Positions 27,858 through 61,814 of a stretch of DNA of 64,000 nt are shown here, one piece after another (positions within the stretch are counted from its first letter, which is position 1; each line of letters starts with the position of its first letter). Below the pieces are notes generated by a model, which was not told the DNA's origin, did not search any database, and worked only from the letters and a program-made list of their open reading frames with translations. This stretch comes from an uncultured Acetobacteraceae bacterium (GTDB lineage Bacteria; Pseudomonadota; Alphaproteobacteria; Acetobacterales; Acetobacteraceae): the NCBI GenBank assembly GCA_964244615.1, contig CAXTJP010000001.1, forward strand, positions 27,488-91,487, written 5' to 3'. The position numbers and the translations under genes are program-made.

Positions 27858-29279
27858 ATGGACGGGCGGGACATCGTGACGGAGAACAGCGTATTGCAGC
27901 GCGCGCAGGCGCACGCGGAACGATTCCTCGCAAGCCTTTCCACGGCACCGTTATCGGCCACCAAGGATGCAGCCGCATTGCGGCAGGCGCTCGGCGGTCC
28001 GATGCCGGAGACGGGGACGCCGCCGGAGGAGGTCATCGATGCACTCGTGGCAGCGGTCGAGGGCGGCCTGCTTCGCTCCGGGTCCGGGCGCTTTTTCGGC
28101 TGGGTCATCGGCGGCACGCTGCCGGTGGCGCTCGCGGCCGACTGGATGACCGCCGTCTGGGATCAGAACGCGGCCTCCTATGCCACCAGCCCGGCCGCAT
28201 CGGTGGCGGAGGAGGTCTGCGGCACGTGGCTGAAGGACGTGCTGATGCTGCCGCCGGACGCGTCGTTCGCCATCGTCACAGGATGTCAGATGGCGCATGC
28301 CACCGCGCTTGCGGCCGCCCGACACCGGCTGCTGCAGCGCCGTGGCATCGATGTGGAGGCCGACGGGCTCGCGGGTGCACCGCGCATACGGATCCTCACC
28401 GGGGCGCACAGGCACGAATCCCTGCTGCGCGCGGCCAGGCTGCTCGGGCTGGGATCGCGCTGCGTCGAACTGGTCGCCTGCGATCCCGACGGCAGGCTGT
28501 CGATGGCCGCCCTGGCTCGGGCGCTGGCTGCCGACGCGGGACCGACCATCGTCGTGCTGCAGGCCGGCGACATGAACACCGGCAGGTTCGACGATTTCGG
28601 ACAGGCCTGTGCGCTGGCGCACGCGGCCGGCGCCTGGGTGCATGTGGACGGCGCCTTCGGCCTCTGGGCGGCCGTCAGCGAACGAACGCGTCACCTGCTG
28701 AACGGCGCGTCGCAAGCCGATAGCTGGGTGACCGACGGGCACAAATGGCTGAACCAGGGTTTCGATTCGGGCTACGTGTTCGTCGCGGATGCGGTCGCGC
28801 ACCGGGCCGCCTTCGCCTTGGAAACCCAATACAGCCACGCCGTGGAAGGCACGCGTCGGCAGATCGACTGGAACCCGGAATGGTCGCGCCGTGCGCGCGT
28901 GTTCTCGGTGTACGCGTCGTTGCGCGGCCTGGGGCGCAGCGGTTTGTGCGAGCTGATCGAACGGTGCTGCGACATGACGCGCCGGCTCGTGGCGGCCCTG
29001 GAGCAGCTGCCTGGCGTGGTGGTGCTGGCGGCGCCGGTCATCAACCAGGCGCTCGTCTGTTTCACCGCGCCAGACGGCCAGGACGACGAGAGGACCGATC
29101 GGGTGATCGCCGAATTGCAGGCGTCGGGCGAGGCGTGGTTCGGCGGCACGACGTGGCGTGGCCGCCGGGCGATGCGGATATCGGTCTGCAACTGGAGTAC
29201 CAACGAGAGCGATGTCGGTCGCGCCGTGCAATCCATCCGTTGCGCCATACGTGACGTGGCAGCGCAGGGCAGTCGGTAA
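27858..29279 (+). CDS. PLP-dependent group II amino acid decarboxylase (aromatic-L-amino-acid decarboxylase-like)
   Basis: Motifs RFFGWVIGG, HVDGAFG, PLP lysine TDGHKWLN and WSRRAR; GGAG RBS before ATG 27858. Confidence 0.9.
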   Translation: MDGRDIVTENSVLQRAQAHAERFLASLSTAPLSATKDAAALRQALGGPMPETGTPPEEVIDALVAAVEGGLLRSGSGRFFGWVIGGTLPVALAADWMTAVWDQNAASYATSPAASVAEEVCGTWLKDVLMLPPDASFAIVTGCQMAHATALAAARHRLLQRRGIDVEADGLAGAPRIRILTGAHRHESLLRAARLLGLGSRCVELVACDPDGRLSMAALARALAADAGPTIVVLQAGDMNTGRFDDFGQACALAHAAGAWVHVDGAFGLWAAVSERTRHLLNGASQADSWVTDGHKWLNQGFDSGYVFVADAVAHRAAFALETQYSHAVEGTRRQIDWNPEWSRRARVFSVYASLRGLGRSGLCELIERCCDMTRRLVAALEQLPGVVVLAAPVINQALVCFTAPDGQDDERTDRVIAELQASGEAWFGGTTWRGRRAMRISVCNWSTNESDVGRAVQSIRCAIRDVAAQGSR

Positions 29280-29388
29280 GCGATTCTTTTCTAAAAACAA
29301 ACAAAGAACTTTGCCTCTTGAGTCGCGCGTTGCGGAGAGTCCCGCGACAGCACGAGCAGTTTTCGCTGCTCAAAGCAGGCCTTTGCCT
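29275..29388 (-). repeat. AT-rich MITE/REP-like element, copy A (degenerate)
   Basis: Ends GGTAAG...CTTTGCCT; its reverse complement shares the core CGTGCTGTCGCGG..CAACGCGC with the copy at 61691; contains the TAA stop of the decarboxylase. Confidence 0.65.
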
Positions 29389-29400
29389 CACCAACGCGCG

Positions 29401-31461
29401 TCAGACATCCTTGGCCAATCGCAGCGCATCAAAGACGGCGGCGTGGATGTTGCGGCTGGACACCGCGTCGCCGATGCGGAACAGCTGGTAGCGCGCCTGA
29501 ACGTTGCGCACCACGGTCTGGGCGCGGCCGGCGAGCAGGGCCGCGTGGTCCACCTCGCCGCCGTTGCGCGAGCCGGGCTTCAGCGCTTCGTACAGCTCGT
29601 CGAGCGGCAACGTGCCGTGCTCGATCACCACCTGATCGACACACCGCTCCTCCGTCTGCGTCCCGTAATCGCTGCCCAGCACGGCCACCAGCGCGTTGCC
29701 GTGTCGGCGCACCGAATGCAGCCGGGTGTTGACCGTCACCCGCACGCCGCAGCGATGAAAGATGCGGGCGTAGGCGGCGTGGTTCAGGCCGCCGATCTCC
29801 GGTGCCAGCATGCGCTCGGGCGTCACGAGTTCCACCGAGGCGCCGGCTTCGGCCAGCATCTCGGCCGCCTGCATGCCGGGATGCGCCCCGTTGTCGTCGT
29901 AGACCAGCACCCGGCCCGACAATGCGGCAGCGCCACCCAGCACGTCCCAGCTCGAGACGACGAGGTCGCGGCCGTCCTGCAGCACCGCCGTGTCCGGCAC
30001 ACCGCCGGTGGCGACGAACACGGTGTCCGGGGCCAGCGCCAGCACGTCTTCGGCACCCGCATAGGTGTCGAAGCGGATCGTGGCACCCATCCGCGCCAGC
30101 TCGGACAGCCGCCAGTCCACGATGCCGATCAGTTCGCGGCGGCGCGGCGCGCGGGCCGCCAGCAGGATCTGCCCGCCGGCACGCGCGGTCGCTTCCAGCA
30201 CCGTCACCCGGTGCCCGCGCTCGGCGGACACGCGTGCCGCTTCCAGCCCGGCGGGACCGGCGCCCACCACCACCACGTGGCGCGTCGGGCCGTCGGCGCG
30301 CGGGATCACGTGCGGCATGCTGGCTTCCCGCCCGGTCGCGGCGTTGTGCACGCATAGCGCCTCGTTACCCTCGTAGATGCGGTCCAGGCAGTAGGTGGCC
30401 CCGACGCAGGGGCGTATGCGGTCTTCCTGGCCCGACAGGACCTTGCGCACGATGTGCGGCTCGGCGATGTGCGCGCGGGTCATGCCGACCATGTCGAGCT
30501 TGCCCTCGGCGATCGCGTGCCGGGCGGTCGCCACGTCGTTGATGCGGGCGGCGTGGAAGGTGGGAAAGCCGGTCGCCGCGCGCACTTCGCCGGCGAAGTC
30601 CAGGTGCTGCGCCGTGCCCATGCCGTGGATCGGGATGACGTGCGAGAGCGCGTTGTCGGTGTCCATGTGCCCGCGGATGATGTTGAGGAAGTCCACCACG
30701 CCGCCACCGGCGAAGCGGCGGGCGATCTCCACCCCGTCCGTGCGGCTCAGGCCGCTCTCCCAGTCCTCGTCGGCAACCATGCGCACGCCGATCAGGAAAT
30801 CGGGCCCCACCGCGTCGCGCATCGCCTGCAGCACGCGCACGGAGAAGCGCATGCGGTTCTCCAGCGTGCCGTTGTACTCGTCGTCGCGGTGGTTGGTGGC
30901 GGGCGACCAGAACTGGTCCGGCAGGTGGCCGTAGGCGTCGATCTCGAACCCGTCGAGCCCTGCCGCCTGCATGCGCTGTGCCGCCGCCGCGTAGTCGGCG
31001 ACGATACGGTCGAGGTCCCAGCGCTCCGCCGCCTTGGGGAAACCGCGATGCGCCGCCTCCCGCACGCGCGAGGGGGCCAGCACCGGCAGCCAGTCCGCCT
31101 TGTTCCACGCGGTACGGCGGCCGAGATGGGTGAGCTGGATCATCACCGCCGAGCCGTGCTCGTGGCACTCGTCGGACAGGCGGCGCAGCCAGGGCACGAT
31201 CTCGTCACTATAGGCGAGCAGATTGCCGAACACCGGCGGGCTGTCCGGCGAGACCACGGCGGACCCCGCCGTCATCGTCAGGGCGATGCCGCCGCGCGCT
31301 TTCTCGACATGGTAGAGCCGGTAGCGGTCCTTCGGCATGCCGTCTTCGGAGTAGGACGGCTCGTGCGCGGTGCTCATCACACGGTTGCGCAGCGTCAGGT
31401 GCCGCAACTGGTACGGCTGCATCAAGGGATCGCGGCTGATCGGCGTGGCGCTCGCGTGCAT
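29401..31461 (-). CDS. stcD: NADH:flavin oxidoreductase, StcD/HpbA-like (probable N-methylproline demethylase)
   Basis: N-terminus DPLMQPYQLRHLTLRNRVMSTAHEPSYSEDGMPKDRY, RPCVGATYCLDRIY, VVGAGPAGLEAA and C-terminus IGDAVSSRNIHAAVFDALRLAKD closely match the rhizobial stachydrine-utilisation flavoenzyme as I recall it. Confidence 0.8.
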   Translation of the reverse strand: MHASATPISRDPLMQPYQLRHLTLRNRVMSTAHEPSYSEDGMPKDRYRLYHVEKARGGIALTMTAGSAVVSPDSPPVFGNLLAYSDEIVPWLRRLSDECHEHGSAVMIQLTHLGRRTAWNKADWLPVLAPSRVREAAHRGFPKAAERWDLDRIVADYAAAAQRMQAAGLDGFEIDAYGHLPDQFWSPATNHRDDEYNGTLENRMRFSVRVLQAMRDAVGPDFLIGVRMVADEDWESGLSRTDGVEIARRFAGGGVVDFLNIIRGHMDTDNALSHVIPIHGMGTAQHLDFAGEVRAATGFPTFHAARINDVATARHAIAEGKLDMVGMTRAHIAEPHIVRKVLSGQEDRIRPCVGATYCLDRIYEGNEALCVHNAATGREASMPHVIPRADGPTRHVVVVGAGPAGLEAARVSAERGHRVTVLEATARAGGQILLAARAPRRRELIGIVDWRLSELARMGATIRFDTYAGAEDVLALAPDTVFVATGGVPDTAVLQDGRDLVVSSWDVLGGAAALSGRVLVYDDNGAHPGMQAAEMLAEAGASVELVTPERMLAPEIGGLNHAAYARIFHRCGVRVTVNTRLHSVRRHGNALVAVLGSDYGTQTEERCVDQVVIEHGTLPLDELYEALKPGSRNGGEVDHAALLAGRAQTVVRNVQARYQLFRIGDAVSSRNIHAAVFDALRLAKDV

Positions 31462-31481
31462 GGTCTGCTCCTGCGGCCTGC

Positions 31482-33071: not shown

Positions 33072-33259
33072 GGAGGCACCTTGGTGTTTGCGGCGCATCA
33101 TTGCCCGATGGCGGGCGTGCCGGCCAACGGAAACCGGCAGGTTCGGGTCGTTTTACGCCAACTTCGTGCTGCGTCGCGAAAACGGCCTCCCACGCCGCTT
33201 CAGGGTGGTGTTACGCTCCCCAGACGTCAACGAAGGGGCACGACCTGACCACGGCACCG

Positions 33260-34348: not shown

Positions 34349-35127
34349 CCGCGAACGGCGCCGGGACCACGCGTGTCCTGAGCCACGTCGTGTCTGCCTG
34401 GGTGGGCGGGCTGACCGGGGCGCTGCAGGCAGTGCCGCCGCTGCTGTTCGTCGGTGTGGCGGGCCTGCTGGCCTGGCGCGCGGCGGGCTGGCGGCTGGGG
34501 TTGCTGACGCTGGCCGGGCTGCTGTTCCTGTGGAATCTCGGCCTGTGGACGCCGATGATCGCGACGCTGGTGCTGGTGACGGTCTCGACGCTCGCCGCCG
34601 TGCTGATCGGGCTGCCGCTCGGCATCGCCGCCGCGCTGAGCCGGCGCACCTGGCGCCTGGTGTCGCCCTGCCTGGACGTGATGCAGACGATGCCGAGCTT
34701 CGTCTACCTGATCCCGGCCATCCCGTTCTTCGGCCTGGGCGCGGTTTCGGCCTGTTTCGCCACCATCATCTTCGCCGCACCGCCCACGATTCGGCTGACC
34801 GCGCTGGGCATCCTGCAGGTGCCGCACGAGCTGAGCGAGGCCGCCGACGCGTTCGGGTGCACGCCCTGGCAGAAGCTGCTGAAGGTGCAGTTGCCGCAGG
34901 CGCTGCCCACCATCATGGCGGGGATCAACCAGACGATCATGCTGGCCCTGTCGATGGTGGTGATCGCCGCGATGATCGGCGCCGGCGGGCTTGGCCGGGA
35001 GGTCTGGAGCGCCATCCAGCGGCTGCAGGCCGGGCGCGGCTTCCAGGCGGGCATCGCCATTGCCATACTGGCGGTGATCTTGGATCGGGTGACGAATGCG
35101 CTGTCGCGACGGTTGCGGACGGCTTGA
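34285..35127 (+). CDS. proW: Glycine betaine/proline-type ABC transporter permease (ProW-like)
   Basis: Motifs LDVMQTMPSFVYLIP, EAADAFG and GINQTIMLALSMVVIAAMIGAGGLG; AAGGAGG RBS before GTG 34285. Confidence 0.9.
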   Translation: MATAIPRFPLDDLCDRALDWLTANGAGTTRVLSHVVSAWVGGLTGALQAVPPLLFVGVAGLLAWRAAGWRLGLLTLAGLLFLWNLGLWTPMIATLVLVTVSTLAAVLIGLPLGIAAALSRRTWRLVSPCLDVMQTMPSFVYLIPAIPFFGLGAVSACFATIIFAAPPTIRLTALGILQVPHELSEAADAFGCTPWQKLLKVQLPQALPTIMAGINQTIMLALSMVVIAAMIGAGGLGREVWSAIQRLQAGRGFQAGIAIAILAVILDRVTNALSRRLRTA

Positions 35128-35251
35128 AAAAAAGTCTTCTTCGAGAAGAAGCAGGCTTTTATCTGCGCTGTCGCGGACAGCTGAAACGTCACTGCGACGT
35201 ATCGTATCCGAACGAAGGTTTTTCGTTCTTTTCAAAACAGCCTCCTTGCCT
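35125..35251 (+). repeat. AT-rich MITE/REP-like element, copy B
   Basis: AAGTCTTCTTCGAGAAGAAGCAGG...GCGCTGTCGCGG...GGTTTTTCGTTCTTTTCAAAACAGCCTCCTTGCCT, lying between proW and proX; left boundary approximate. Confidence 0.65.
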
Positions 35252-35268
35252 TCTCGGGACACATCGCC

Positions 35269-36108: not shown

Positions 36109-36124
36109 GCGGGGTGCCGGGCCG

Positions 36125-37288: not shown

Positions 37289-39299
37289 CGCGGACACGCA
37301 GGACGCGGCCGAGAGACCATCTCCGATAGAGGCGGAGGTGCTGCGCATACGATCGCTGCTGCAGCTTGGCGACCATCGTCAGGCGCTGCAGGCCGGGTTC
37401 GCCCTGTGCGCCCGCGTGCCAGAAAACCGTGACGTGCTCTACATGATCGCCGTCGCGCAGCGGTACCTGCGGCTTCATGCCGACGCGCTGCAGACGCTGG
37501 CACGGCTGCAGGCAGCGCATCCCGCCTACAGCCGTCTCTACCAGGAGCGCGGCCATTGTTTCGCCGCCGCCGGCGATCCCGCCGCGGCCCTCGCGGCGTA
37601 TCTCGACGCGGTGAACCTCAACGCGGCGCTGCCGGCGAGCTGGCAGGCGCTGGCCGTGTTGTTCCGCGCCGCGGGCCGGACCGAAGAGGCGGGCATGGCG
37701 GCGGGCCACGTGGCCAAGCTCCGCCAGCTGCAGCCTGCGGTCGTGACGGCATCCAGCCTGTTTGCCGACGGCGAGGTGAACGAGGCCGAGCGGGTGATAC
37801 GGCAGTTCCTGCGCGAGCACCCACGCGACGTGGAGGGCATGCGGTTGCTCGCACGCATCGGCATGAAGCTCGACGGGCTGGAGGATGCCGAGTTCCTGCT
37901 GGAGAGCGTGCTGGCTTTCTCGCCCGGCTACCATCTCGCGCGCTACGACTACGTGCGCGTCCTGCTGCAACGCCATCGCAACGCCAAGGCATTGGAAGAA
38001 GCCAGGGTGCTGCTGCAGGCGGAGCCGGCCAACCGGGACTACCGTGCGGTTTACGCGACCGCCTGCCTGGCGCTGTCCGATTACGACGAGGCGATCCGCA
38101 CCTATCGCCAGCTTCTGGAAGAAGCACCGGCGGCGGCAGACCTGCATCTGTCGATCGGCCACGCCCTCAAGACGCTCGGGCGCCAGCAGGACGCGATCGC
38201 ATCCTATCGCGCGGCCGCTGCCGTCAAGCCCGGGTTCGGCGACGCCTACTGGAGCCTCGCGAACCTGAAGACCTACCGGTTCACCGACGACGAGATCGCC
38301 CGCATGCGGCAACAGGAGGCCGATCCGGCGGCGTCGGCGGTCGACCGCGCTCACCTGTGTTTCGCGCTGGGCAAGGCGCTGGAGGATCGCGCCTCCTACG
38401 CCGAGTCGTTCGGCTACTACGAGCGCGGCAACGCGCTGAAAAGGACCGAGACGCAGTACCGCCCGGACGCGATCGAGGGGAGCGCCCGACAGCAGGTGGC
38501 GCTGTTCACGCCGGCGTTCTTCGCCGCCCGTCCGGATTGGGGCTGCCCCAGCAACGAGCCGATCTTCGTGGTGGGGTTGCCGCGCGCGGGATCGACGCTG
38601 ATCGAACAGATCCTCGCCTCGCACTCGCAGGTCGAGGGCACGATGGAACTGGCCGACATCCCGCGCCTGGTGCTGCGCCTGCAGGGGCGCGCGCACGACG
38701 AGACCGCGCCCGCCTACCCGGCGGCGCTCGCCGACCTGTCTGCGGCGCAACTGCGCCGGCTGGGCGAAAGCTACCTGGCCGACACGCGCGTCTATCGCAC
38801 CGGCCGCGCGTTCTTCATCGACAAGAACCCGAACAATTTCCGCCATCTCGGGCTGATCCACCTCATGTTGCCGAACGCGCGCATCATCGACGCGCGGCGC
38901 GACCCGATGGCGTGCTGTTTCAGCAACTTCAAGCAGCTCTTCGCCTTCGGTCAGGAATTCACCTACGATCTGCGCGACATCGCCCGCTACTACCGCTCCT
39001 ACGTGGCGCTGATGGCGCATTGGGAGGCGGTGATGCCGCGGCACATCCTGCGCGTGCAGCACGAGGACGTGGTTGCGGACCTGGAGGGCAGCGTGCGACG
39101 CCTGCTCGATTTCTGCGGCCTGGCTTACGAGCCGGGCTGCGTCCTGTTCCACAGGACCGAGCGCAGCGTGCGCACCGCGAGCTCCGAACAGGTGCGTCGG
39201 CCCATCAACGCGGATGGGCTGTCGCAATGGACGCATTTCAGGCCCTGGCTCGGTGTGCTTGAGGATGCGCTGAAAGGCAGGGAAGGCCTTCTTTTTTGA
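37281..39299 (+). CDS. Tetratricopeptide-repeat protein with C-terminal sulfotransferase domain
   Basis: Several TPR-like helical repeats; PAPS-binding motif FVVGLPRAGSTLIEQIL, FIDKNP, RRDPMACCFS and VRTASSEQVR; the last 8 residues come from repeat copy C. Confidence 0.9.
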   Translation: MRSADTQDAAERPSPIEAEVLRIRSLLQLGDHRQALQAGFALCARVPENRDVLYMIAVAQRYLRLHADALQTLARLQAAHPAYSRLYQERGHCFAAAGDPAAALAAYLDAVNLNAALPASWQALAVLFRAAGRTEEAGMAAGHVAKLRQLQPAVVTASSLFADGEVNEAERVIRQFLREHPRDVEGMRLLARIGMKLDGLEDAEFLLESVLAFSPGYHLARYDYVRVLLQRHRNAKALEEARVLLQAEPANRDYRAVYATACLALSDYDEAIRTYRQLLEEAPAAADLHLSIGHALKTLGRQQDAIASYRAAAAVKPGFGDAYWSLANLKTYRFTDDEIARMRQQEADPAASAVDRAHLCFALGKALEDRASYAESFGYYERGNALKRTETQYRPDAIEGSARQQVALFTPAFFAARPDWGCPSNEPIFVVGLPRAGSTLIEQILASHSQVEGTMELADIPRLVLRLQGRAHDETAPAYPAALADLSAAQLRRLGESYLADTRVYRTGRAFFIDKNPNNFRHLGLIHLMLPNARIIDARRDPMACCFSNFKQLFAFGQEFTYDLRDIARYYRSYVALMAHWEAVMPRHILRVQHEDVVADLEGSVRRLLDFCGLAYEPGCVLFHRTERSVRTASSEQVRRPINADGLSQWTHFRPWLGVLEDALKGREGLLF

Positions 39300-39414
39300 A
39301 AAAAAAAGCAAAGAACTTCTGGTCGTGCTGTCGCCGAGGCTACAGATACCCGACCAATGATCAGAAGTTTTTTGGTCCTTTTTCTCAAAAAAGGACTGCT
39401 TGCTTTCCTTGCCT
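39275..39414 (+). repeat. AT-rich MITE/REP-like element, copy C (140 bp, best preserved)
   Basis: Terminal inverted repeats AGGCAGGGAA / TTCCTTGCCT; sub-terminal CTTTTTTGAAAAAA palindromic arms; separates two convergent genes and overlaps both stop codons. Confidence 0.85.
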
Positions 39415-43219: not shown

Positions 43220-43308
43220 CTGCTCTCCCGGCACCCGCGTTTTCCAAAACCCGGCATGAACATAGGGGAAGATGCGTCGGCTTGGCCCTGCCGCGTTTGC
43301 GGAGAAAT

Positions 43309-44259: not shown

Positions 44260-44361
44260 AGGCAAGCAGCCCGCTACCGGTCGGGTGTCTGTGGAAACTC
44301 CGCGCCAGCACGACCAAAAGTCTTTTGCTTCTTTTCTTCAGAAAAGAAGGCCTTCCTTACC
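44260..44361 (-). repeat. AT-rich MITE/REP-like element, copy D (one arm reduced)
   Basis: The minus strand GGTAAGGAAGGCCTTCTTTTCTGAAGAAAAGAAGCAAAAGACTTTTGGTCGTGCTGGCGCGGAG...CACAGACACCCGACC aligns with copy C; the other end is CTGCTTGCCT. Confidence 0.8.
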
Positions 44362-45138
44362 CGCCCCGATGGCCAGCACCGCGTCGTAGGCGCCCGGTTC
44401 GAACACCGCGACTCCGTCCAGCAACAACGCGTCCCGAACAGCCGCCAGCGCCGGGTCGCCGGCAACCTCATCGATGGCCTGCCGCAGAGCCGCCAGGGTG
44501 GGCGCGTCCGTGCCGGCGCCGGTGATCAGCGGCAGGCCCGGGCTGGCGGCGGTCCAGGCCAGCACGCGCAGCCCGGCGGTCAAGTTCGGGCGCAGACGCT
44601 GCAGCTGCGCCCAGGTGACGCAGTCGATCGCCGCCACGTCGGCGCGGCCCTCCGCCACCGCGCGGATGCTGGCCGCGTGGGCGCCGGTCCAGACGATTTC
44701 GCCGAAGAACGGGGCACGGCCGGGGAGCGCCGCCACCGCTTGGCGCAACAGGTTCATGCCGCTGTTGGAGGCGGCGTCGTTCACCGCGCAGCGCCGCCCG
44801 CGCAGCGCGGCCAGCGTGCGGGCGGGCTCGGCCGCGCGCACCACGATGGCGCTACGATAGGACGCGCCCTGGCAGCCCAACGCGCGGTAGCAGGGCGTGG
44901 CGACGACGGTGACGCGGCCTCTCAGCGCGGTCGCCAGCGGGTAGCCGCAGGTCTGCGCCAACAGCAGGCCGGAATCGGTCCACAACGCATCGGGGGACGG
45001 TCCTCGCGTCAGCGACGCCGGCGCCTCGACCCCGAGCCGCGTCAGGCGCCCGGCGATGGCGGCCCACAGCGCGTCGGTCGCCGGACGCAGCTCCTCGAAA
45101 TCGTACATCGGCAAGGCGGCGAGACGGGGCGGGTTCAC
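44338..45138 (-). CDS. PhnD/SsuA/transferrin-like periplasmic-binding-fold protein without a signal peptide
   Basis: N-terminus LAALPMYD, LAQTCGYPL, YRSAIVVR, SNSGMN, AHAASI and ADVAAIDCVT; GTG start overlaps the LysR stop (GTGA). Confidence 0.78.
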   Translation of the reverse strand: MNPPRLAALPMYDFEELRPATDALWAAIAGRLTRLGVEAPASLTRGPSPDALWTDSGLLLAQTCGYPLATALRGRVTVVATPCYRALGCQGASYRSAIVVRAAEPARTLAALRGRRCAVNDAASNSGMNLLRQAVAALPGRAPFFGEIVWTGAHAASIRAVAEGRADVAAIDCVTWAQLQRLRPNLTAGLRVLAWTAASPGLPLITGAGTDAPTLAALRQAIDEVAGDPALAAVRDALLLDGVAVFEPGAYDAVLAIGAGKEGLLF

Positions 45139-47409: not shown

Positions 47410-47410
47410 C

Positions 47411-48673: not shown

Positions 48674-50223
48674 TGGACGCGACACCAGAATCGCTGCGCG
48701 GCACCGACCCTTGCGCCATCGACGGCAAGTTCGTGGCCCCGGACGAGCATGCCCAGCTGCTCGTGGTGGGGGCGGGCCCGGCCGGGATCGCCGCGGCGCT
48801 GGAGGGGGCGCGGCTCGGCCTGCGCGTGGTGCTGGTGGACGAGAACCCGGTTTCGGCCTCGCTGATGGGGCTGGACGTGCCGCTGTTCTACGGCCAGCGC
48901 ATGACGGCGTCGGTGCAGGAGCCGGCCCGGATGATCGGGCGCCTGGTCGCATCCACACCCGGCCTGGAAGCGGCGTTCGACGCCGGCGTGGACGTGCGGC
49001 TCGGCATCACCGTCTGGGGCGTGTTCGTCAACGGCGCGGCCCTGAGCGCCCTGCCCGTCCGGGTCGCCGGCCTGTCGGACGGAACAAGAAGCTGGATGTG
49101 CGGCTTCGACGCGCTGATCCTGGCCACCGGCGCGCGCGACCTGGTGCTGGGCTTCCCCGGCGTGGACATCCCCGGCGTGATGGGTGCCCGCGCGCTGCAC
49201 AGCCTGCTGGCCCGCTACGACGCGTTTGACGGCCACCGGCTGCTGATCCTCGGCTCCGGCGACCTGGCCGTGCAGACCGCCCTGCTCGCGCTGGATCGCG
49301 GGCTGCAGGTGGCGGCCCTGGTCGAGGTGTTGCCCGAGGCGCAGGCCGCCCCGGCGTGGGCGGCCTCGCTCACGGCACGGGGGGTTGCGATCCTGACAGG
49401 GGCCACGGTCCTGCGGGCGGAAGGCGTGGGACTAGGCCTGGCCGCGGCGGTGGTCCGCCGGGACGGCGTGGAGCAGCGCCTGGCGTGCGATACCGTCTGC
49501 CTGGCCATCGATGCCGTGCCGGCGATCGAGCTGGCGGGGGCCGCGGGCTGCCGCCTCACCTATCGCGGCGACCTGGGCGGCCACGTGCCGCTTTTGTCGG
49601 CGGACGGCGCAACCTCGCTGCCCGGGACGTTCTGCGCCGGCGACTGTGCCGGCCTGGCCGACGATGCCGCGTGCGAAGACCAGGGCCGCGCGTCCGCACG
49701 CGCCGCCGCACGATGGCTGGAAACCCGCGCGCCGACACAGGCGGCGCCCGCATCCTCACTTGGCCAGGACGGCACGGCGTATCGCCTGGCGTGGATGCGC
49801 GCGCTGCTGATCGAGGAGAGCGTGTCGGCGCCGGTCTGCCTGTGCGAGGAGGTGAGCCGTGCCGAGCTGCTCGGCCTCAAGCCGCCGCGCTACCTCGGCT
49901 GCGCGTCCGAACGGATGGCGGCGCGCGACGGCGCCAGCCTGCTGCGCGACGGGCCGCTGCACCCGGACCAGGTCAAGCGGCTGACCCGCGCCGGCATGGG
50001 CGTGTGCCAGGGCAGGCGGTGCCGCGAACAGATCGCGCTGCTGCTGGCACTGACCTCCGGCGCCTCGCCCGCGGACATCCCGCTGGCGAGCTATCGTGCG
50101 CCGGTGCGGCCGTTGCCGTTGGGCGTGCTGGCCGATCACGCCACGATGCGCGATGGATGGGACGTCTGGTTCGGGATAGGGACGCAGTGGGTGCCGTATG
50201 ACGTGATAGAGACAGGCAAGTGA
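48673..50223 (+). CDS. FAD-dependent oxidoreductase with C-terminal BFD-like [2Fe-2S] domain (opine oxidase A / HcnB-like)
   Basis: Motifs VVGAGPAG, LATGARD, FPGVDIPGV, AGD, VCLCEEV and KRLTRAGMGVCQGRRC; TGATG overlap with the upstream gene. Confidence 0.85.
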   Translation: MDATPESLRGTDPCAIDGKFVAPDEHAQLLVVGAGPAGIAAALEGARLGLRVVLVDENPVSASLMGLDVPLFYGQRMTASVQEPARMIGRLVASTPGLEAAFDAGVDVRLGITVWGVFVNGAALSALPVRVAGLSDGTRSWMCGFDALILATGARDLVLGFPGVDIPGVMGARALHSLLARYDAFDGHRLLILGSGDLAVQTALLALDRGLQVAALVEVLPEAQAAPAWAASLTARGVAILTGATVLRAEGVGLGLAAAVVRRDGVEQRLACDTVCLAIDAVPAIELAGAAGCRLTYRGDLGGHVPLLSADGATSLPGTFCAGDCAGLADDAACEDQGRASARAAARWLETRAPTQAAPASSLGQDGTAYRLAWMRALLIEESVSAPVCLCEEVSRAELLGLKPPRYLGCASERMAARDGASLLRDGPLHPDQVKRLTRAGMGVCQGRRCREQIALLLALTSGASPADIPLASYRAPVRPLPLGVLADHATMRDGWDVWFGIGTQWVPYDVIETGK

Positions 50224-50326
50224 AGCACTCCTTTTTTGAAAAGGAGCAGAAGACTCTTGTCCGTTTGGCGCGCGACAGCCGGACAAAAGTTCTTTGGTTC
50301 TTTCTTTCAAGAAAGAACTCTTGCCT
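50214..50326 (+). repeat. AT-rich MITE/REP-like element, copy E (113 bp)
   Basis: Exact terminal inverted repeats AGGCAAG / CTTGCCT; internal TTGTCCG...CGGACAA stem; fills the whole gap between two operon genes. Confidence 0.85.
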
Positions 50327-51457
50327 ATGATCGCCGTCATCGGCGGCGGCGTCACCGGCCTCAGCGCCGCCTGGTGGCTCGCCCGCGCCGGCCACGACGT
50401 GACCGTGTTCGAGCGCTTCATCGTCGGCTGGGAAGCGTCCGGCCGCAACGGCGGCGGCGCCACACACTACCAGAGCCCGCTGTTCCACGAGGAGCAGCGC
50501 CTGTGGCCGATGATGGACGACCTGCTCGGCTACCCGACCGAGTACCAACGCCGGCGTATCGTCATCAACCTGACGCCGGAGGACGAGGCACGCTACCGGG
50601 CCATGGCGACGCTCACGCGCACGATGGGCTACGAATCCGAAGAGCTCGACGTGAAGCAGTTGCGCGAGCTGGCGCCCTTGGCCACCGAGCAGGCGCTCAG
50701 CGCGCAGTATTTTCGTTTCGGCGGCCACGCCAACCCGCAGCGCACCGTGCAAGCCTATGCCTGGGCGCTGCAGGACCATGGCGGCCGCATCCTGCAGCAC
50801 ACCGACGTGCACGGTTTGAAGACCCGAAACGGCCGCGTCACCGAGATCCTTGCCGGTGGCGACAGGCACGGTTGCGATGCCGTCGTCATCGCGGCGGGGC
50901 CGCAGACCGCGTCCCTGCTGGCGCAACTGGGCGTGGACCTGCCGCTGGCCGCGGCACGGGCCGAAATGATCGTGACCGAGGCGCTGCCGCTGATGCCGGT
51001 GGGCGGCGTGGACGGCAACGGGCTTTACGGCCGGCAGACACGACGCGGCAACCTCGCCTATGGCGGCGGCCCGCATGAGTGGCTGGAGGACGACGCCCAC
51101 CTGCAAGCGGCGCGGCCGACCACGCCGCTGCTGCGCAACCTGGCGGCACGGCTGGCGACGCTGTTCCCGCGCGCCGCGCATGCGCGCGTGCTGCGAAGCT
51201 GGGCCGGCATCGTCGAGAACACGCCGGATGGCCGCCCGGTGCTCGACCGGCTGAGCGCGCCCGACAACGTCACGGTGGCCACGATGTCCAGCGTCGGCTT
51301 CGGGCTGTCGCCGGCGACCGGCCGCGCGGTCGCCGACCTGGTGACGACCGGCGCTTGCAGCTTCACCGACATCGCCAAGCTCGGCATCGGACGGTTCGCC
51401 GGGCTGCCGGCGGATTGGCGCGCGGCGCGTGGATGGCAGGCGCTGGTTCCCGCGTGA
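50327..51457 (+). CDS. D-amino-acid oxidase family FAD-binding oxidoreductase (opine oxidase B / HcnC-like)
   Basis: Motifs VIGGGVTG, ASGRNGGG, HANPQ, RSWAG..TPDGRP and GFGLSPATG; ATG 50327 directly follows element E. Confidence 0.88.
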   Translation: MIAVIGGGVTGLSAAWWLARAGHDVTVFERFIVGWEASGRNGGGATHYQSPLFHEEQRLWPMMDDLLGYPTEYQRRRIVINLTPEDEARYRAMATLTRTMGYESEELDVKQLRELAPLATEQALSAQYFRFGGHANPQRTVQAYAWALQDHGGRILQHTDVHGLKTRNGRVTEILAGGDRHGCDAVVIAAGPQTASLLAQLGVDLPLAAARAEMIVTEALPLMPVGGVDGNGLYGRQTRRGNLAYGGGPHEWLEDDAHLQAARPTTPLLRNLAARLATLFPRAAHARVLRSWAGIVENTPDGRPVLDRLSAPDNVTVATMSSVGFGLSPATGRAVADLVTTGACSFTDIAKLGIGRFAGLPADWRAARGWQALVPA

Positions 51458-52710: not shown

Positions 52711-52750
52711 TAAAGATCTTCCGGTTCTTTTCTTCAGAGAACGCCTGTCC
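52711..52750 (+). repeat. Right-arm remnant of the AT-rich element
   Basis: AAAGATCTTCCGGTTCTTTTCTTCAGAGAACGCCTG resembles the right arm GGTTCTTT(C)TTCAAGAAAGAAC..CTTGCCT. Confidence 0.5.
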
Positions 52751-55914: not shown

Positions 55915-56398
55915 CGCGGGCGTCACGATCGGCGAGGCTCCGCCCGGGTCGCTGGCGGGGATCGCCGCGTTCCGGGATCGTGCGCGACTGATGGCGGCGT
56001 TGCGGGCGGCGTTCGGCGTGGACGTGCCGGTCACGTCGCGTTACGTGCAGGCTGGCGGTGTTGCATTGTCCTGCCTGGCGCCCGGACGTTTTCTCGCGAG
56101 CGGCGCGCGTGATGCGGATCTGCCGGCGAGGCTGGCCCGAAGCCTGGCCGGCCTGGCGGCCGTGACGGACCAGAGCGACATGTGGGCGGTCTTCGTCGTG
56201 TCCGGTGCGTCGGTGCGCGAGGTCCTGGCGAAAGTGGTGCCGGTCGATCTCGGTGACGACCAGTTCCGCACAGGCGACGTGGCGTTGACGCGCGCCGGCC
56301 ACCTGGACGTCCGATTATGGCGCATGACGGAACACAGCTACGAGATATCCACAACCCGCTCCTTCGGAACCGACCTGCGCCACCTGCTCCGACGATGA
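55907..56398 (+). CDS. soxG: Sarcosine oxidase gamma subunit
   Basis: Position after soxA; motifs LAPGRF, AVTDQS and REVLAKVVPVDL. Confidence 0.8.
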   Translation: MADAGVTIGEAPPGSLAGIAAFRDRARLMAALRAAFGVDVPVTSRYVQAGGVALSCLAPGRFLASGARDADLPARLARSLAGLAAVTDQSDMWAVFVVSGASVREVLAKVVPVDLGDDQFRTGDVALTRAGHLDVRLWRMTEHSYEISTTRSFGTDLRHLLRR

Positions 56399-56400
56399 CC

Positions 56401-56437
56401 GAAAGTTCCTTGCGCCTTCAGGAAAGATGGCCTGCCT
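56401..56437 (-). repeat. Left-arm remnant of the AT-rich element
   Basis: The minus strand AGGCAGGCCATCTTTCCTGAAGGCGCAAGGAACTTT resembles the left arm of copy G and encodes the last codons and stop of the ABC ATPase. Confidence 0.45.
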
Positions 56438-58376: not shown

Positions 58377-59188
58377 CGCAACGCGTCCTGCAGACCCTCG
58401 GCCACCAGGTTGACGCCGACCACCAGCGATGCCGTGGCCAGGGCGGCGAAACCCACCGTCCAGCCGTAGCCGCCGACGATCAGCCCGTAATTCTCAGCGA
58501 TCGACAGGCCCCAATCCGGCGAGGGCGGCTGTATGCCGAAGCCCAGGAAACTTAGCGAAGCGACGGTGAAGATGGCGTAGCCCAGGCGCACCGTCACCTC
58601 CACCAGGATCGGCGGCAGGATGTTGGGCAGTATCTCCACGAACATGATGTGCAGCGCACCCTCGTTGCGCAGTTGCGCGGCCGGAACGTAATCCAGCTTG
58701 CACTCCGCCAGCACGGCGCTGCGCACGGTGCGCGCGATGATCGGCGTGAACACCAGCGCGATCACCAGCGTGACGTTGAACGACGACGGCCCGAGCGCCA
58801 CCAGCACCAGCAACGCCACCACGATCAGCGGCAGCGCCAGTATCACCTCGATCAGCCGGCTCAGCACCGTGTCGACCCAGCCGCCGGCATAGCCGGTGAC
58901 CAGGCCCAGCGTGGTGCCGCACAGCATGGCCAGCAGCGTGGCGGCAGGAGCGACCGACAGGATGGGCCGGGCGCCGGCGATGACGCGGGAGAACACATCC
59001 CGGCCGATCTGGTCGGTGCCGAACCAGTGTTGCGCGGAGGGCGGGGCCAGCGCGTTCATCAGGTCGTCAGCGTAGGGATCTTGCGGGGCCAGGTGACCAC
59101 CGAAGATGGCGCAAATCGCCCAGAAGCCCACCACCATCAAGCCAAGAAAGAAAGGCGTTCTTTTTCGAGAAAAAGAAACAAGGTTCAT
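58373..59188 (-). CDS. Peptide ABC transporter permease (DppC-like)
   Basis: Motifs HWFGTDQIGRDVFSR and PPSPDWG; ATG 59188 overlaps the upstream stop (ATGA). Confidence 0.9.
   Translation of the reverse strand: MNLVSFSRKRTPFFLGLMVVGFWAICAIFGGHLAPQDPYADDLMNALAPPSAQHWFGTDQIGRDVFSRVIAGARPILSVAPAATLLAMLCGTTLGLVTGYAGGWVDTVLSRLIEVILALPLIVVALLVLVALGPSSFNVTLVIALVFTPIIARTVRSAVLAECKLDYVPAAQLRNEGALHIMFVEILPNILPPILVEVTVRLGYAIFTVASLSFLGFGIQPPSPDWGLSIAENYGLIVGGYGWTVGFAALATASLVVGVNLVAEGLQDALR
59144..59188 (+). repeat. Element-like arm embedded in the 5' end of the DppC-like gene
   Basis: AAGAAAGAAAGGCGTTCTTTTTCGAGAAAAAGAAACAAGG matches the left-arm pattern GGAAGGC.TTCTTTTT.GA.AAAAAGAAGCAAA; strongly AT-rich within a GC-rich operon. 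Confidence 0.5.
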
Positions 59189-60129
59189 CTTGGGTCCAGC
59201 AGCGTGACTAGCGTGTCGGCCAGGATGGCGGAGAGGATGTAGGCGGTGCCTACCGTCAGGATGCCGGCTTCCAGCATCGGGTAGTCCTTGCCGTGCGCGG
59301 CGGTCAGGATCAGGCTGCCGATGCCCTGGTAGCGGAACAGGGTTTCCACCACGACCAGGCCGCCCAGCAGGTAGCTCGTCTGCGCGGCGATCACCGTGAT
59401 CGTGGGCAGCAGCGCGTTGCGCAGCACATGATGCAAAATCACCCGACGCCGCCGCAGGCCTTCCAGCGTGGCGGTGCGCGTGTAGTCGGCCTCCAGCGCG
59501 TCGATCATGCCGGCGCGGGTGATCCTGGCGATGTAGCCGAACAGGATCAGCACCAGCGGCAGCGCCGGCAGGATCAGGTGGCGCAACTGCTCCGGCACGC
59601 TGGTGCCGGGCCTGGTGTTGGCGGAGATCGGCAACCAGCGCAGCCACACGCCGAACACCAGGATCAGCAGGATGCCGGAGACGAACTCCGGCACCACGGT
59701 CAGCGACAGGCCGCCCAGGTTGATCAGCCGGTCCGGCCAGCGCCCGCGATACAGCGCCGCCAGCACGCCGGCCCCGATCGACAGCGGCACCACGATCGTC
59801 AGCGTGATCGCCGCCAACGCCAGCGACCTGCCGAGCGCGCGCAGGATGAACGGCGCCACCGGACTGCGATAGGCGTAGGAGATCCCCATGTCACCCTGCA
59901 CGAGGTGGCCGATCCAGCGCGCGTACATCAGCAGCGGCGGCGCGTCGGTGCCGAGCTGGTGGTTCAGCACGGCCACCGCGCGCGCATCGGCCAGCGGTCC
60001 CAGGATCGAGCGCCCGACATCGCCCGGCAGCACCTGGCCGGCGGCGAACACCACCGCGCTCAGCAGCAGCAGCGTCAGCAGGCTGAGCGCGAGGCGGACC
60101 AGAACCGGGCGGACACCGCCGCGCGTCAC
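59185..60129 (-). CDS. Peptide ABC transporter permease (DppB-like)
   Basis: Motifs LPGDVGRSILG, GDMGISY, PEFVSG, DYTRTA..EG and HVLRNALLP; GTG start at 60129. Confidence 0.9.
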   Translation of the reverse strand: MTRGGVRPVLVRLALSLLTLLLLSAVVFAAGQVLPGDVGRSILGPLADARAVAVLNHQLGTDAPPLLMYARWIGHLVQGDMGISYAYRSPVAPFILRALGRSLALAAITLTIVVPLSIGAGVLAALYRGRWPDRLINLGGLSLTVVPEFVSGILLILVFGVWLRWLPISANTRPGTSVPEQLRHLILPALPLVLILFGYIARITRAGMIDALEADYTRTATLEGLRRRRVILHHVLRNALLPTITVIAAQTSYLLGGLVVVETLFRYQGIGSLILTAAHGKDYPMLEAGILTVGTAYILSAILADTLVTLLDPR

Positions 60130-61664
60130 GACAGCGCCGCGTCCTGCAGGAAAATCTGCGACAGGCCGCTGACGGCGACGCCGGTGACCGTCGGGCCGGT
60201 GGCGCACAGGTAGTCGTAGAAATAGGGGATGATCACCGGCGTCTCGTCCAGCAGCAGGGTCTGTATCCTGCCCGCAAGCACGCGCTGTGCCGCAAGATCG
60301 GTGGCGGCGATGTACTCCGCCACCAGACGGTCGTAATCCGGGTTCCTGAAATGCGCGGCGTTCCAGGCGCCCTGGCTGAGATAGGGTGCGGCGAGGTTCA
60401 CGTTCGGCACGCCGCGATGGCCGTAATCGGTGATGCCCATCGTGCTGTCGAGCCAGTCCGAACGGCCGAACTGCGCGGTGCCGTAATAGGTGCCGGCATC
60501 CTCGATGCGCAAATTGAGCCGTATGCCGATCTGCGCGCAGGCGTTCTGTACCAGCACGGCGAGGTCGGGGATCTCCTGCTGGCGCTCGGTGGTCAGCGTG
60601 GTTTCGAACCCCTCGGCGTGGCCGGCCTCGCGCATCAGCGCGCGGGCGCGGGCCAGGTCGCGGGCGCGCTGCGGCACCGAACGGTCGGTCGATGCGAACA
60701 GCGGGTCGAACGGGGAATCGTTGGCCAGCCTGGCGCGGCCCTGGAACAGGCCGTGCACCAGGCCGGGTCGATCGAGGCTCAGGGCGATGGCCTGGCGCAC
60801 GCGCCGGTCGGCGAGCGGCCCCTCGTCGCAGCGCAGATGGATCTGGCGATGGGTGGAAGCCGGGATGTCGATGATGCGCACGTCCGGGTCGCGCAGCAGG
60901 CCCTGCGCGCCCTGCACGGAGATCTGCACGATGACGTCGACCTGGTCGTCTTCCAGCGCCAGTATCTGCGGCTGCTGGTCGGTGAAGAACGAGAACTCGG
61001 TGCGCGCCGGCAAGGCCGGACGGCCCCAATAAGCCGGGTTGCGAACGAAGCTCGCGCCCTGCTTCGGCGCGTAACGCTCCAGCCGGAACGGTCCGGTGCC
61101 GTTGAAATCGGTCTCGAAATCGCCCGCGTACTTCGCCGGCAGCATGATGGCGTTGTAGTTGTCCGACGACACGTAGAACGGGAAGTTTCCGTTCGGCGCG
61201 TCCAGCTCGAAACGCACCGTGAGGTCGTCGATCCGCCTGGTGCCGCCGGGCGACAGCACGCCGCGCAGGACGGAGAGCGCGTTGGAGCCCTGTTTTGGGT
61301 CGCACAGCCGATCCATCGTGGCCACCACGTCGGCCGCGCCGAAGCCCTGCCCGTCGTGGAATCTCACGCCCGGGCGCAGCTTGAACACCCAGGCCGAGCA
61401 ATCCGCGTTCGGATACCAACCGAGTGCCAGCGAGGGGCGCAGCACCAGGTCGGACCCGTCGTCGATGAGGAACTCGCCGGTCTGGCACAGCATCGCCAGG
61501 CCGCCGATCTCGGAGACCGTCAGCGGCTCGATGGCGCCCGCCGGCACCTGGCTGGCGACGCGGATTGTGGCACCGGGCCGCCCAAGCGACGCCGGCACGG
61601 CGGCGAGCAGGCCGATGCGGGCGGCGTGGCGGATGAACAGCCTACGGCTGAGCCGTCTGACGAT
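60126..61664 (-). CDS. Peptide ABC transporter substrate-binding protein (family 5) with Tat-like signal; apparent ATC start
   Basis: Motifs LRPGVRFHDG, GTGPF, DRRVRQAI and EGFE; the frame extends upstream of GTG 61598 through LSRRLFIRHAARIGLLAAVPA to ATC 61664, which follows AGGAG; an in-frame TAG lies just upstream. Confidence 0.85.
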   Translation of the reverse strand: MVRRLSRRLFIRHAARIGLLAAVPASLGRPGATIRVASQVPAGAIEPLTVSEIGGLAMLCQTGEFLIDDGSDLVLRPSLALGWYPNADCSAWVFKLRPGVRFHDGQGFGAADVVATMDRLCDPKQGSNALSVLRGVLSPGGTRRIDDLTVRFELDAPNGNFPFYVSSDNYNAIMLPAKYAGDFETDFNGTGPFRLERYAPKQGASFVRNPAYWGRPALPARTEFSFFTDQQPQILALEDDQVDVIVQISVQGAQGLLRDPDVRIIDIPASTHRQIHLRCDEGPLADRRVRQAIALSLDRPGLVHGLFQGRARLANDSPFDPLFASTDRSVPQRARDLARARALMREAGHAEGFETTLTTERQQEIPDLAVLVQNACAQIGIRLNLRIEDAGTYYGTAQFGRSDWLDSTMGITDYGHRGVPNVNLAAPYLSQGAWNAAHFRNPDYDRLVAEYIAATDLAAQRVLAGRIQTLLLDETPVIIPYFYDYLCATGPTVTGVAVSGLSQIFLQDAALS

Positions 61665-61690
61665 GGTTGACTCCTGCTAGGCTACGCTTA

Positions 61691-61814
61691 AGGCAAGGCC
61701 TGCTTTTTTGAAAAGCGACAAAAAACTTCGGGTCATGCTGTCGCGGAGGTTTCCACAACGCGCAACCAGGCAACAAAAGTTTTTTGGTTCTTTTCAAAAA
61801 AGAACCGCTTGCCT
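61691..61814 (+). repeat. AT-rich MITE/REP-like element, copy G (124 bp)
   Basis: Exact terminal inverted repeats AGGCAAG / CTTGCCT; core GGTCATGCTGTCGCGGAGGTTTCCAC is shared with copies C and D; contains the TTG start of the MFS gene. Confidence 0.85.

Follow-up and report, generated by a model that had tools for sequence, protein, structure and literature searches.

A dispersed AT-rich palindromic repeat of the REP/BIME/MITE-like kind at gene 3′ ends in Acetobacteraceae

Correia elements end in repeats of 26 bp and show a duplicated TA, and an ERIC element forms one long imperfect palindrome. REP sequences are extragenic imperfect palindromes of 20–40 nt, enriched at gene 3′ ends and often arranged in inverted doublets, and BIMEs are mosaics of palindromic units that alternate in orientation and are joined by defined linkers; those of E. 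coli are bound by gyrase, IHF or DNA polymerase I. One end of a REP palindrome carries a conserved tetranucleotide, GTAG or CGTC, and CGTC repeats are reported to be missing in Acetobacteraceae (PMC3733652). The repeat described here was found in a 64,000-nt stretch of the draft genome of an uncultured Acetobacteraceae bacterium (the window), and it is a non-coding, high-copy, interspersed palindromic repeat, REP/BIME/MITE-like and therefore of an already familiar kind. A full-text literature search found no published description of it; Rfam covariance models gave no match in the window at the gathering score, and none around copy F (listed below) at E values up to 1.

The first-pass annotation had listed six near-complete copies and three arm remnants in the window, with AGGCAAG/CTTGCCT ends, sub-terminal arms and a core. 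Alignment shows that all six copies fit a single 130-nt architecture, and a profile derived from the alignment recovers each of them in place; the ends, T-run/A-run arms and the core GTGCTGTCGCGGAG stand as the consensus. The order is purine end motif, AT-rich hairpin, A/T linker and GC-rich core, followed by the mirror order. Each arm is a unit of ~45 nt, made of a 9-nt purine end motif (AARGMAAGS), a perfect AT-rich hairpin of 20–24 nt with arms of 8–11 bp, and a 13-nt linker consisting of an A-run/T-run. Two inverted arms flanking a variable GC-rich core give the ~130-nt form, six of which lie in the window, and the same arm also occurs solo and in back-to-back pairs (arm-GC-arm). Hairpins are thus of REP size and stand in inverted doublets, and the full, solo and back-to-back arrangements built from one arm form a mosaic of the BIME type. 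The end motifs are the least conserved part, and conservation fades at most 9 nt outside the hairpins. The features in the window are as follows.

29272–29388, minus strand: copy A, full but degenerate element in the stop-to-stop spacer of two convergent genes (profile hit 29272–29385, model positions 11–138, 62 bits)
35125–35254, plus strand: copy B, full but degenerate element that follows an ABC permease gene's stop and precedes the next gene (profile hit 35126–35254, model positions 8–139, 39 bits)
39274–39414, plus strand: copy C, full element filling the spacer of two convergent genes (profile hit 39274–39408, 117 bits)
44260–44362, minus strand: copy D, end-core-linker-hairpin-end, with one linker-plus-hairpin module deleted (profile hit 44277–44362, model positions 5–89)
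50214–50326, plus strand: copy E, full element inside an operon (profile hit 50216–50326, 74 bits)
52711–52750, plus strand: decayed solo arm consisting of linker, hairpin and end motif, preceded by a TGA stop and followed by the next ATG
56401–56437, no strand assigned: possible decayed arm, under the profile threshold
59144–59188, minus strand: solo arm that provides the ATG and first ~15 codons of a minus-strand membrane-protein gene
61689–61817, plus strand: copy F, full element (profile hit at the same coordinates, 113 bits)
61690–61698, plus strand: end motif of copy F
61702–61716, plus strand: left hairpin of copy F
61719–61731, plus strand: linker of copy F
61732–61773, plus strand: core of copy F
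61774–61787, plus strand: second linker of copy F
61786–61806, plus strand: right hairpin of copy F
61807–61815, plus strand: second end motif of copy F

Several of these copies are interwoven with the ends of their neighbouring genes. The upstream gene's TAA (29277–29279) falls within an end motif of copy A, the loop of the left hairpin of copy C contains the upstream gene's TGA (39297–39299), and the left end of copy E holds the upstream stop (TGA, 50221–50223), with the next ATG at 50327. Both hairpins of copy B are shortened and palindromic nonetheless, and copy D has a clean 31-nt alignment gap in place of its second hairpin. The native sequence of copy C is predicted to fold into a four-way junction at −61.5 kcal/mol (z −7.4), and a four-way junction is also the predicted fold of copy E. 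At the copy E junction, the two nearest genomes have an orthologous element, G010 has a different element and seven other genus genomes have none. The idea of an ATGA overlap that reappears once copy E is taken out was rejected, since orthologs have a longer C-terminus and a spacer of 25–30 nt. Copy F marks a synteny break, its two flanks lying on different replicons in the nearest complete genome.

Two of the three arm remnants could be confirmed by orthologous arms in two related genomes, and the third could not. The site at 52711–52750 has clear arms in the G016 and G014 orthologs and full or half elements in other species at the same junction. The arm at 59144–59188 is found again in G016 and G014, in G008 and G017 a full element fits exactly into the stop-to-start gap, and six other species lack the element at this site. 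For 56401–56437, the sole ortholog recovered has an unrelated GC-rich spacer.

A profile search of the 3.07-Mb draft genome gave ~202 loci, 71 of them full copies, and some 200 loci of an AT-rich repeat against a 69% GC background exclude chance. The proposal of a genome-wide REP/MITE-like family holds: the loci are non-coding, with no transposase of their own in view. The repeat is present in 24 of 24 genus genomes and in 42 of 143 sampled Acetobacteraceae genera; other alphaproteobacterial families, sampled with about 298 genomes, gave no instance of it. As far as searched, it is confined to the family Acetobacteraceae. Copy numbers vary widely; first-look candidates range from 31 to 1,873 per genome in the 24 genus genomes, and locus numbers in related genomes from tens to ~2,000, the upper figure being extrapolated. 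The richest genome, G008, has 192 loci in 400 kb, which make up roughly 5% of those 400 kb. A plasmid collection contained two short matches, one of them between convergent genes on a Pseudoroseomonas cervicalis plasmid, and viral contigs had no match to one exact arm pattern.

The positions of the copies relative to genes are strongly biased. The repeat occupies 103 of 443 convergent junctions (23%), 90 of 1,768 tandem junctions (5%) and 5 of 438 divergent junctions (1%), which is the extragenic location and 3′-end enrichment known from REP sequences. At 61 of 77 stop-side ends, the stop codon lies 2–21 nt from the hairpin base. Orientation relative to transcription is unbiased, both for the core (25:27) and for solo arms (12:16), and some copies lie inside operons and others inside coding starts. 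Placement at gene ends or starts, as first described, is correct within the window, and genome-wide it becomes essentially gene 3′ ends. The junction location also stands, and the further claim that junctions are targeted is indistinguishable from survival at junctions only.

Hairpin arms are 98.9% paired while the copies are only ~78% alike. In the two local hairpins of 20–24 nt, pairing holds in 97% and 95% of cells, compensatory pair types are numerous, and the observed covariation score was reached by none of 500 shuffles. The hairpins are kept paired through compensatory change. The first-pass annotation had supposed one long RNA hairpin joining the two arms; this model was rejected, because left-arm/right-arm pairing does not covary beyond shuffles. 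Among 25 orthologous pairs of G008 and G017, identity is 92–94% in the arms, 85% in the core and 90–92% in the flanks, and arms evolve at the pace of neighbouring genes. The compensatory changes across copies descend from few subfamilies and thus represent few independent events. Correction of imperfect palindromes at replication could also keep hairpins perfect without selection.

In the present genome, the repeat is old and no longer moving: its copies are at most 89.5% identical to their nearest neighbours, and copies in G008 reach 98.6%. Comparisons between genomes show apparent gains at sites empty in sister species and an unequal multiplication by lineage. At the sites of seven full copies, the element is missing from both nearest genomes, or from the single one of them that was recovered. 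At the empty sites compared, the element takes the place of the whole stop-to-stop spacer, for which the sister has an unrelated GC-rich spacer, instead of splitting it, and a simple insertion is therefore not demonstrated by these comparisons, which were made between species 8–25% diverged. No target-site duplication was found at the seven empty sites, at the window junctions, where its absence had already been noticed, or at the G008/G017 polymorphism, although in comparisons between species short duplications could have decayed. This polymorphism is a single site with a full element in G008 and a solo hairpin in G017. Almost every other mappable copy is common to the two genomes, so that no recent insertion event was caught, and a metagenome scan for conspecific insertion polymorphism gave nothing closer than 83% protein identity.

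Taken together, these data make it probable, in our judgement, that the repeat is a non-autonomous REP/BIME-like element, once mobile, which survives downstream of genes and whose arms are kept for a hairpin role at gene ends. It would have spread through recognition of the folded arm hairpin in trans, in the mode of REP and IS200/IS605-type ends, by an enzyme that would not be encoded in this genome. Only copies downstream of genes would then have survived, and their arms may be retained because the hairpin has an effect there, most plausibly by hindering transcription or RNA decay from either side. On this reading, which fits best, the repeat is a formerly mobile orphan whose arms are now under selection.

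The bias to gene 3′ ends and convergent junctions is so extreme that the repeat could instead be primarily a host gene-end signal, a two-way terminator or mRNA 3′-end protector that was copied around and kept. Replacement of the sister species' unrelated GC-rich spacer, arm conservation equal to that of coding DNA, sites filled in several species and a symmetric layout of A-run, core hairpin and T-run are all consistent with this explanation, which we regard as possible and somewhat doubtful. The core and its flanking A- and T-runs are terminator-like in layout only, however. Intrinsic (Rho-independent) terminators have a GC-rich stem that leads directly into a U-run; here the stems are A/U-rich and no clean U-run follows them, the tail being GCUUGCCUU, and a terminator scan performed at chance (8 sites vs 8.4 expected), with one arm flagged. 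Moreover, a required signal would not be expected to show a ~50-fold spread of copy number among close species. Copies also stand within operons and coding starts, and solo arms have no orientation preference.

A different role for the conserved arm, as a triple-helix module, is suggested by a correlation within the arm itself. The order of parts would be a Hoogsteen pyrimidine run, a 5-nt linker, a Watson–Crick pyrimidine run, a loop and a purine run; the upstream pyrimidine run would be the Hoogsteen third strand for the six loop-proximal base pairs, with C+.G-C replacing T.A-T. The product could be intramolecular H-DNA at gene ends or an RNA triplex of U.A-U and C+.G-C. In 374 arms from three genomes, the single C of the upstream run, the C of the 5′ stem strand and the G of the 3′ stem strand occur at matching positions, as seen in three variant haplotypes (68, 30 and 23 arms); among arms with a stem C-G pair, 121 have the matching upstream C, six have it together with an extra C, and two are without it. 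Replication-based copying does not generate such a mirror-repeat relation, and a protein reading the duplex would not require it. However, no more than three haplotypes are independent, the triples are only six, and C+.G-C requires protonation. The 5-nt "linker" is itself paired, with covariation, to the distal end of the hairpin, so that triplex and full hairpin are mutually exclusive, and the unbiased orientation of solo arms argues against a role in mRNA. We consider a triplex module unlikely.

Still less likely is a classical MITE, that is, a deletion derivative of a DDE-type insertion sequence sharing its terminal inverted repeats and a target-site duplication. Inverted-repeat structure, a length of <200 bp, a variable core and lineage-specific bursts are as this explanation predicts, but the ends are the least conserved part, and no compared site shows a duplication. 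No IS transposase or RAYT (REP-associated tyrosine transposase) with matching ends, for which the first-pass annotation proposed a search, emerged from the arm pairs, IS110 copies and RAYT loci read; matches to DDE and rve transposases are present in five genomes. Searches of this genome and of 400 kb of the G008 sequence found no transposase bounded by arms; the only arm pair spaced 150 to 5,000 bases apart encloses an acyl-CoA dehydrogenase and recO. In G008, the hairpins of the repeat are insertion sites for IS110-family elements and for another small inverted-repeat element. The two IS110 copies examined lie within the repeat, at one fixed position in the 5′ arm of the hairpin, so that IS110 uses the repeat and did not make it, and it was rejected as mobiliser. 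The repeat thus serves at least two other mobile elements as a landing site.

A RAYT mobiliser would suit the REP-like hairpin size, inverted doublets, 3′-end bias and targeting by IS110-family elements, and weak Y1-transposase matches are more frequent among those family members that carry the element (14 of 21 genomes vs 63 of 250 overall, uncorrected for relatedness). However, Y1 transposase (PF01797) has no match in this genome, which has only a RAYT gene fragment (C106:5533-5774), or in G008, and the genomes with intact RAYTs, G016 and G014, have few AT-rich copies. RAYT-like genes exist in 14 of 26 genus genomes; at the four loci read, the flanking repeats are of the classical GC-rich GTAG kind, for example GTAGGGCGGAAAAGCGAAGCGCCTTCCGCC, and the examined flanks have no AT-rich element at five of six loci, the sixth having one arm ~470 bases downstream. 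As Y1 matches are lacking in this genome and in G008, the RAYTs read in the genus are flanked by another repeat and the arms, headed by AARGMAAGS, have no GTAG or CGTC head, a RAYT-mobilised REP/REPIN family is effectively refuted.

Across the family, including acetic acid bacteria, the repeat separates a large share of convergent genes, and annotation pipelines give it no name. It shapes gene ends directly, by donating stop codons and C-terminal residues and, for one gene in the window, the start codon and N-terminus, and it marks synteny breaks. If the hairpin or triplex acts on transcription, RNA decay or DNA topology, the repeat would be a family-wide regulatory layer; if neither is active, it would be a clean case of an orphan REP-like element outliving its mobiliser. 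If the triplex is real, selection would be acting on an intramolecular triplex carried by a dispersed bacterial repeat.

Among known systems, the repeat resembles REP, BIME and REPIN sequences of Escherichia coli, Pseudomonas and Stenotrophomonas in having short hairpins as singles, inverted doublets and mosaics with linkers, in its extragenic location biased to gene 3′ ends and convergent junctions, in its hundreds to thousands of copies with maintained hairpins, and in the insertion of IS110-family elements into the hairpin. Unlike them, it is AT-rich, has neither a GTAG/CGTC head nor a RAYT partner, and has a conserved 13-nt A/T linker that covaries with the stem; in this genus, the RAYT genes are surrounded by another REP family, which is GC-rich and of the GTAG type. 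Like Correia elements of Neisseria and ERIC/IRU elements of enterobacteria, it consists of imperfect palindromes of 100–150 nt, dispersed beside genes and with no known transposase, but its ends are fuzzy, no duplication is seen, and two local hairpins are conserved instead of a long one. Correia and ERIC/IRU elements are co-transcribed and form stable hairpins. IS-derived MITEs are likewise small and non-coding, with inverted arms, a variable middle and lineage-specific bursts, but here there is no target-site duplication, no parent with matching ends was found, and conservation is lower at the terminal bases than in the sub-terminal hairpins. With palindrome-associated elements of the IS200/IS605 type, the repeat shares sub-terminal hairpins in place of terminal repeats; those elements insert without duplication, and none was seen here. 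It differs from them in that Y1 has no match in this genome and G008 and TnpB none in the five genomes tested, no conserved short target is evident beside one end, and its arms are inverted copies of each other.

All six near-complete copies that the first-pass annotation listed in the window (A–F, starting at 29275, 35125, 39275, 44260, 50214 and 61691) were found at those coordinates and align on one common plan; its observation is confirmed. In the six-copy alignment, a purine-rich outer end, AAGGCAAGG, is followed by the first AT-rich palindrome, of which CTGCTTTTTTGAAAAAAGCAG is an example, then by the linker CAAAAAACTTTTGG and a GC-rich core in which GTGCTGTCGCGGAG is nearly invariant. 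The second half has the reversed order of linker, second palindrome GGTTCTTTTTTCAAAAAAGAACC and end GCTTGCCTT. Copies A and B are degenerate, and copy D has lost one linker-plus-hairpin module. Among the three proposed remnants, those at 52711 and 59144 are true single arms (an arm being ~45 nt of end motif, hairpin and linker), because orthologous sites in the two nearest genomes (G016 and G014) have clear arms; the one at 56401 was not confirmed. The first 29 kb of the window contain no copy. A different arrangement, linker–hairpin–GC–hairpin–linker, was seen at C1:14406-14533 of the same draft genome, 13 kb before the window start, and at five similar loci. Most of these back-to-back loci have ATGAAC...GTTCAT-like ends, resembling a full element turned inside out, and the ends carry TGA or TAA triplets when read inward.

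Palindromes are near-perfect within each copy, with 98.9% of arm positions paired, although pairwise identity between copies has a median of 78% and complementarity between the left and right palindromes of an element is just 72%. A 50-copy alignment was tested for covariation under a model that combines two local hairpins with a central and a terminal stem. The local hairpins showed 97% and 95% pairing, and two-sided changes were frequent (one pair was G-C in 24 copies and U-A in 22, another U-A in 32 and C-G in 14). The covariation score of the two-local-hairpin model exceeded all 500 shuffles, whereas the single long hairpin of the first-pass annotation did no better than shuffles, so that its interpretation was supported in part but not on this point. 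Folds of single copies are predicted to be four-way junctions or rods, with z-scores down to -7.4. Because subfamilies inherit the changes, independent compensatory events number perhaps a dozen, not hundreds. Alternatively, replication-based correction of imperfect palindromes, instead of selection, may keep the hairpins paired.

A further pattern involves three strands. In 374 arms from three genomes, a six-base pyrimidine run upstream of the hairpin changes in concert with the six stem bases nearest the loop, on both the 5′ and the 3′ strand, and the upstream run mirrors the 5′ strand. Among arms with a stem C-G, a matching upstream C was present in 121, a matching C plus another in 6 and none in 2.

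Arm haplotypes (upstream run / 5′ strand / 3′ strand)
TTTTTT / TTTTTT / AAAAAA: 184 arms
TCTTTT / TTTTCT / AGAAAA: 68 arms
CTTTTT / TTTTTC / GAAAAA: 30 arms
TTCTTT / TTTCTT / AAGAAA: 23 arms

The mirror relation is what a parallel pyrimidine third strand requires (T.A-T, C+.G-C), and an intramolecular triplex is normally laid out in the order found here: third strand, five bases, Watson-Crick strand, loop and purine strand. Nevertheless, we consider it unlikely that the arm would form such a triplex with the upstream run as third strand. The pattern comprises just three variant haplotypes and six triples, and the five-base 'linker' itself pairs with the hairpin end in a pairing that also co-varies; hence full hairpin and triplex would be mutually exclusive. 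Moreover, an mRNA triplex predicts that solo arms lie one way relative to the upstream gene, but 12 and 16 were found in the two orientations, in a set that includes some back-to-back halves.

The two-hairpin element is abundant. A profile made from the six window copies was iterated over the entire draft genome (3.07 Mb, 180 contigs, 69.2% GC) and found 206 loci, 71 of them full length. All 24 other genomes of the genus carry the repeat, with 31 to 1,873 first-look candidates per genome. In 400 kb examined of the complete genome G008 (OZ240673.1), 192 loci (113 full) give a density of ~1 per 2 kb, roughly 5% of the DNA. The family sample covered 251 genomes and 143 genera, of which 64 and 42, respectively, had the repeat. 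No match came from 300 further genomes drawn across the class, about 298 of which belong to other alphaproteobacterial families. In many other genera the ~45-nt arm is 93-98% identical to the draft-genome consensus and the core is unmatched. Carriers of the exact pattern were, by record title, uncultured Acetobacteraceae or Rhodospirillales genomes assembled from metagenomes, and one plasmid of Pseudoroseomonas cervicalis has an arm between two convergent genes.

With gene calls from a codon-usage model trained on the draft genome itself, occupied junctions were 103 of 443 convergent, 90 of 1,768 tandem and 5 of 438 divergent. Of 77 ends facing a gene 3′-end, 61 have the stop codon within or directly next to the 9-nt end motif, at 2-21 nt from the hairpin base; sequence conservation is gone outside this motif. 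The asymmetric core showed no preferred orientation relative to transcription (25 versus 27), and a simple terminator scan was at chance level. At several window sites the repeat enters coding sequence, as follows.

39275-39299 and 44338-44361: two unrelated genes end within element arms, both at the hairpin-loop TGA, and therefore share element-encoded last residues
50200-50330: the gene before copy E lacks ~13 C-terminal codons (...GNMHA* end) kept in G016 and other species, and it now ends at a stop within the end motif; the orthologs do not support the idea that an ATGA overlap would return if the element were removed
59137-59188, minus strand: a solo arm supplies the ATG and ~15 N-terminal codons of a membrane-protein gene (MNLVSFSRKRTPFFLG...), replacing the MRRLLRPGFLAG-type start of orthologs in species without the arm

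Full copies in the draft genome have nearest-neighbour identities of at most 89.5% (median 85%), so there has been no recent movement there; in G008 the values reach 98.6% (median 91.7%). The joined flanks of 41 full copies were searched in the two nearest genomes, and 8 of the sites were then aligned. The element was missing at seven, in both genomes or the one recovered, and the eighth was unreadable. At those seven sites the ancestral spacer is not split: the element replaces it from stop codon to stop codon, in some cases also altering the last few codons. Between G008 and its relative G017, with flanks ~90% identical, 51 of 88 loci in a syntenic stretch were mappable; 31 were unchanged and the other 20 showed mostly partial differences or complex indels. 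At one site a full element of G008 corresponds to a solo hairpin flanked by the two end motifs in G017, which fits a deletion between the two near-identical palindromes. Identity across 25 orthologous pairs was 92-94% in the arms and 85% in the core, compared with 90-92% in the flanks, which are mostly coding; thus, arms evolve no faster than genes. Judged from these sequence comparisons, the element in the draft genome is old and immobile, with its arms under constraint.

Several other copies, including copy F, are at synteny breaks, and at one pair the two nearest genomes both differ by a reciprocal rearrangement. The flanks of the copies at C67:10083-10218 and C5:51494-51628 and of copy F (61689-61817) are joined otherwise in both; in G016 the right flank of the C67 copy and the left flank of the C5 copy adjoin at C2:742321-742830, and the two flanks of copy F are on separate replicons. 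Elements therefore lie at rearrangement breakpoints.

Other mobile elements enter the hairpin in G008. An IS110-family element (326-aa DEDD transposase, 11 matches) seems, from its insertion points, to take the repeat as a specific target: both copies read interrupt the 5′ arm of a full element's right hairpin at an identical point. In several copies the hairpin loop houses a second small element, 112-200 nt long, which has the terminal repeats TTGAGTGTCCGTTTGAAAAG...CTTTCAAAACGGACAC and may have a TGA duplication; the orthologous G017 site and the draft genome lack it.

L265:9297-10671 (G008 chromosome 3469297-3470671): IS110 copy in an AT-rich element
near G008 3529200-3530780: IS110 copy in an AT-rich element
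L270:10185-10296 (G008): second small element; the 400 kb contain six further partial matches

The AT-rich hairpin therefore serves, like REP sequences, as an insertion target for other elements.

As to a mobiliser, the Y1 transposase family had no match in the draft genome or G008, and TnpB none in five genomes tested. DDE and rve transposases are present in these five, and IS110 transposase has matches in three, the draft genome not among them. Only one outward-facing pair of solo arms in the draft genome encloses a gene block (acyl-CoA dehydrogenase and recO). A RAYT (REP-associated tyrosine transposase)-like protein taken from the genus has relatives in 14 of 26 genomes, with only a fragment in the draft genome (C106:5533-5774). 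It was rejected as mobiliser: at four loci whose flanks were read, classical GC-rich GTAG-headed repeats, not the AT-rich element, flank the genes, and AT-rich copies are few in genomes whose RAYTs are intact. When six RAYT loci were scanned with the AT-rich profile, five gave nothing and the other a single arm, ~470 bases downstream. A REP system of the classical kind exists separately in the genus, with RAYT-like genes of ~180 aa and GC-rich GTAG-headed palindromes such as GTAGGGCGGAAAAGCGAAGCGCCTTCCGCC.

L299 (G022): RAYT-like locus
L300 (G016): RAYT-like locus
L297 (G013): RAYT-like locus
L296 (G003): RAYT-like locus
L159:1000-2100 (G023 contig C4): RAYT-like gene amid low-complexity DNA that is strikingly rich in A and C (with runs like CCCAACCTAACAACAAACAACAC)

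The element had no match in Rfam, full-text literature searches found no published description, and a palindromic-repeat survey places Acetobacteraceae among families without CGTC repeats (PMC3733652). The repeat is a real member of a familiar class, undescribed as far as could be found. In contrast to MITEs, no target duplication was seen at the sites compared, and no parent element was found in the draft genome or in 400 kb of G008. It resembles REP, BIME and REPIN sequences in unit size, mosaic use, location, hairpin maintenance and targeting by IS110-family elements, but lacks the GTAG/CGTC head and the RAYT association, two defining features of the REP/REPIN family. Like Correia and ERIC elements it is an orphan palindromic repeat; unlike them, its conserved structures are two local hairpins, not one long one.
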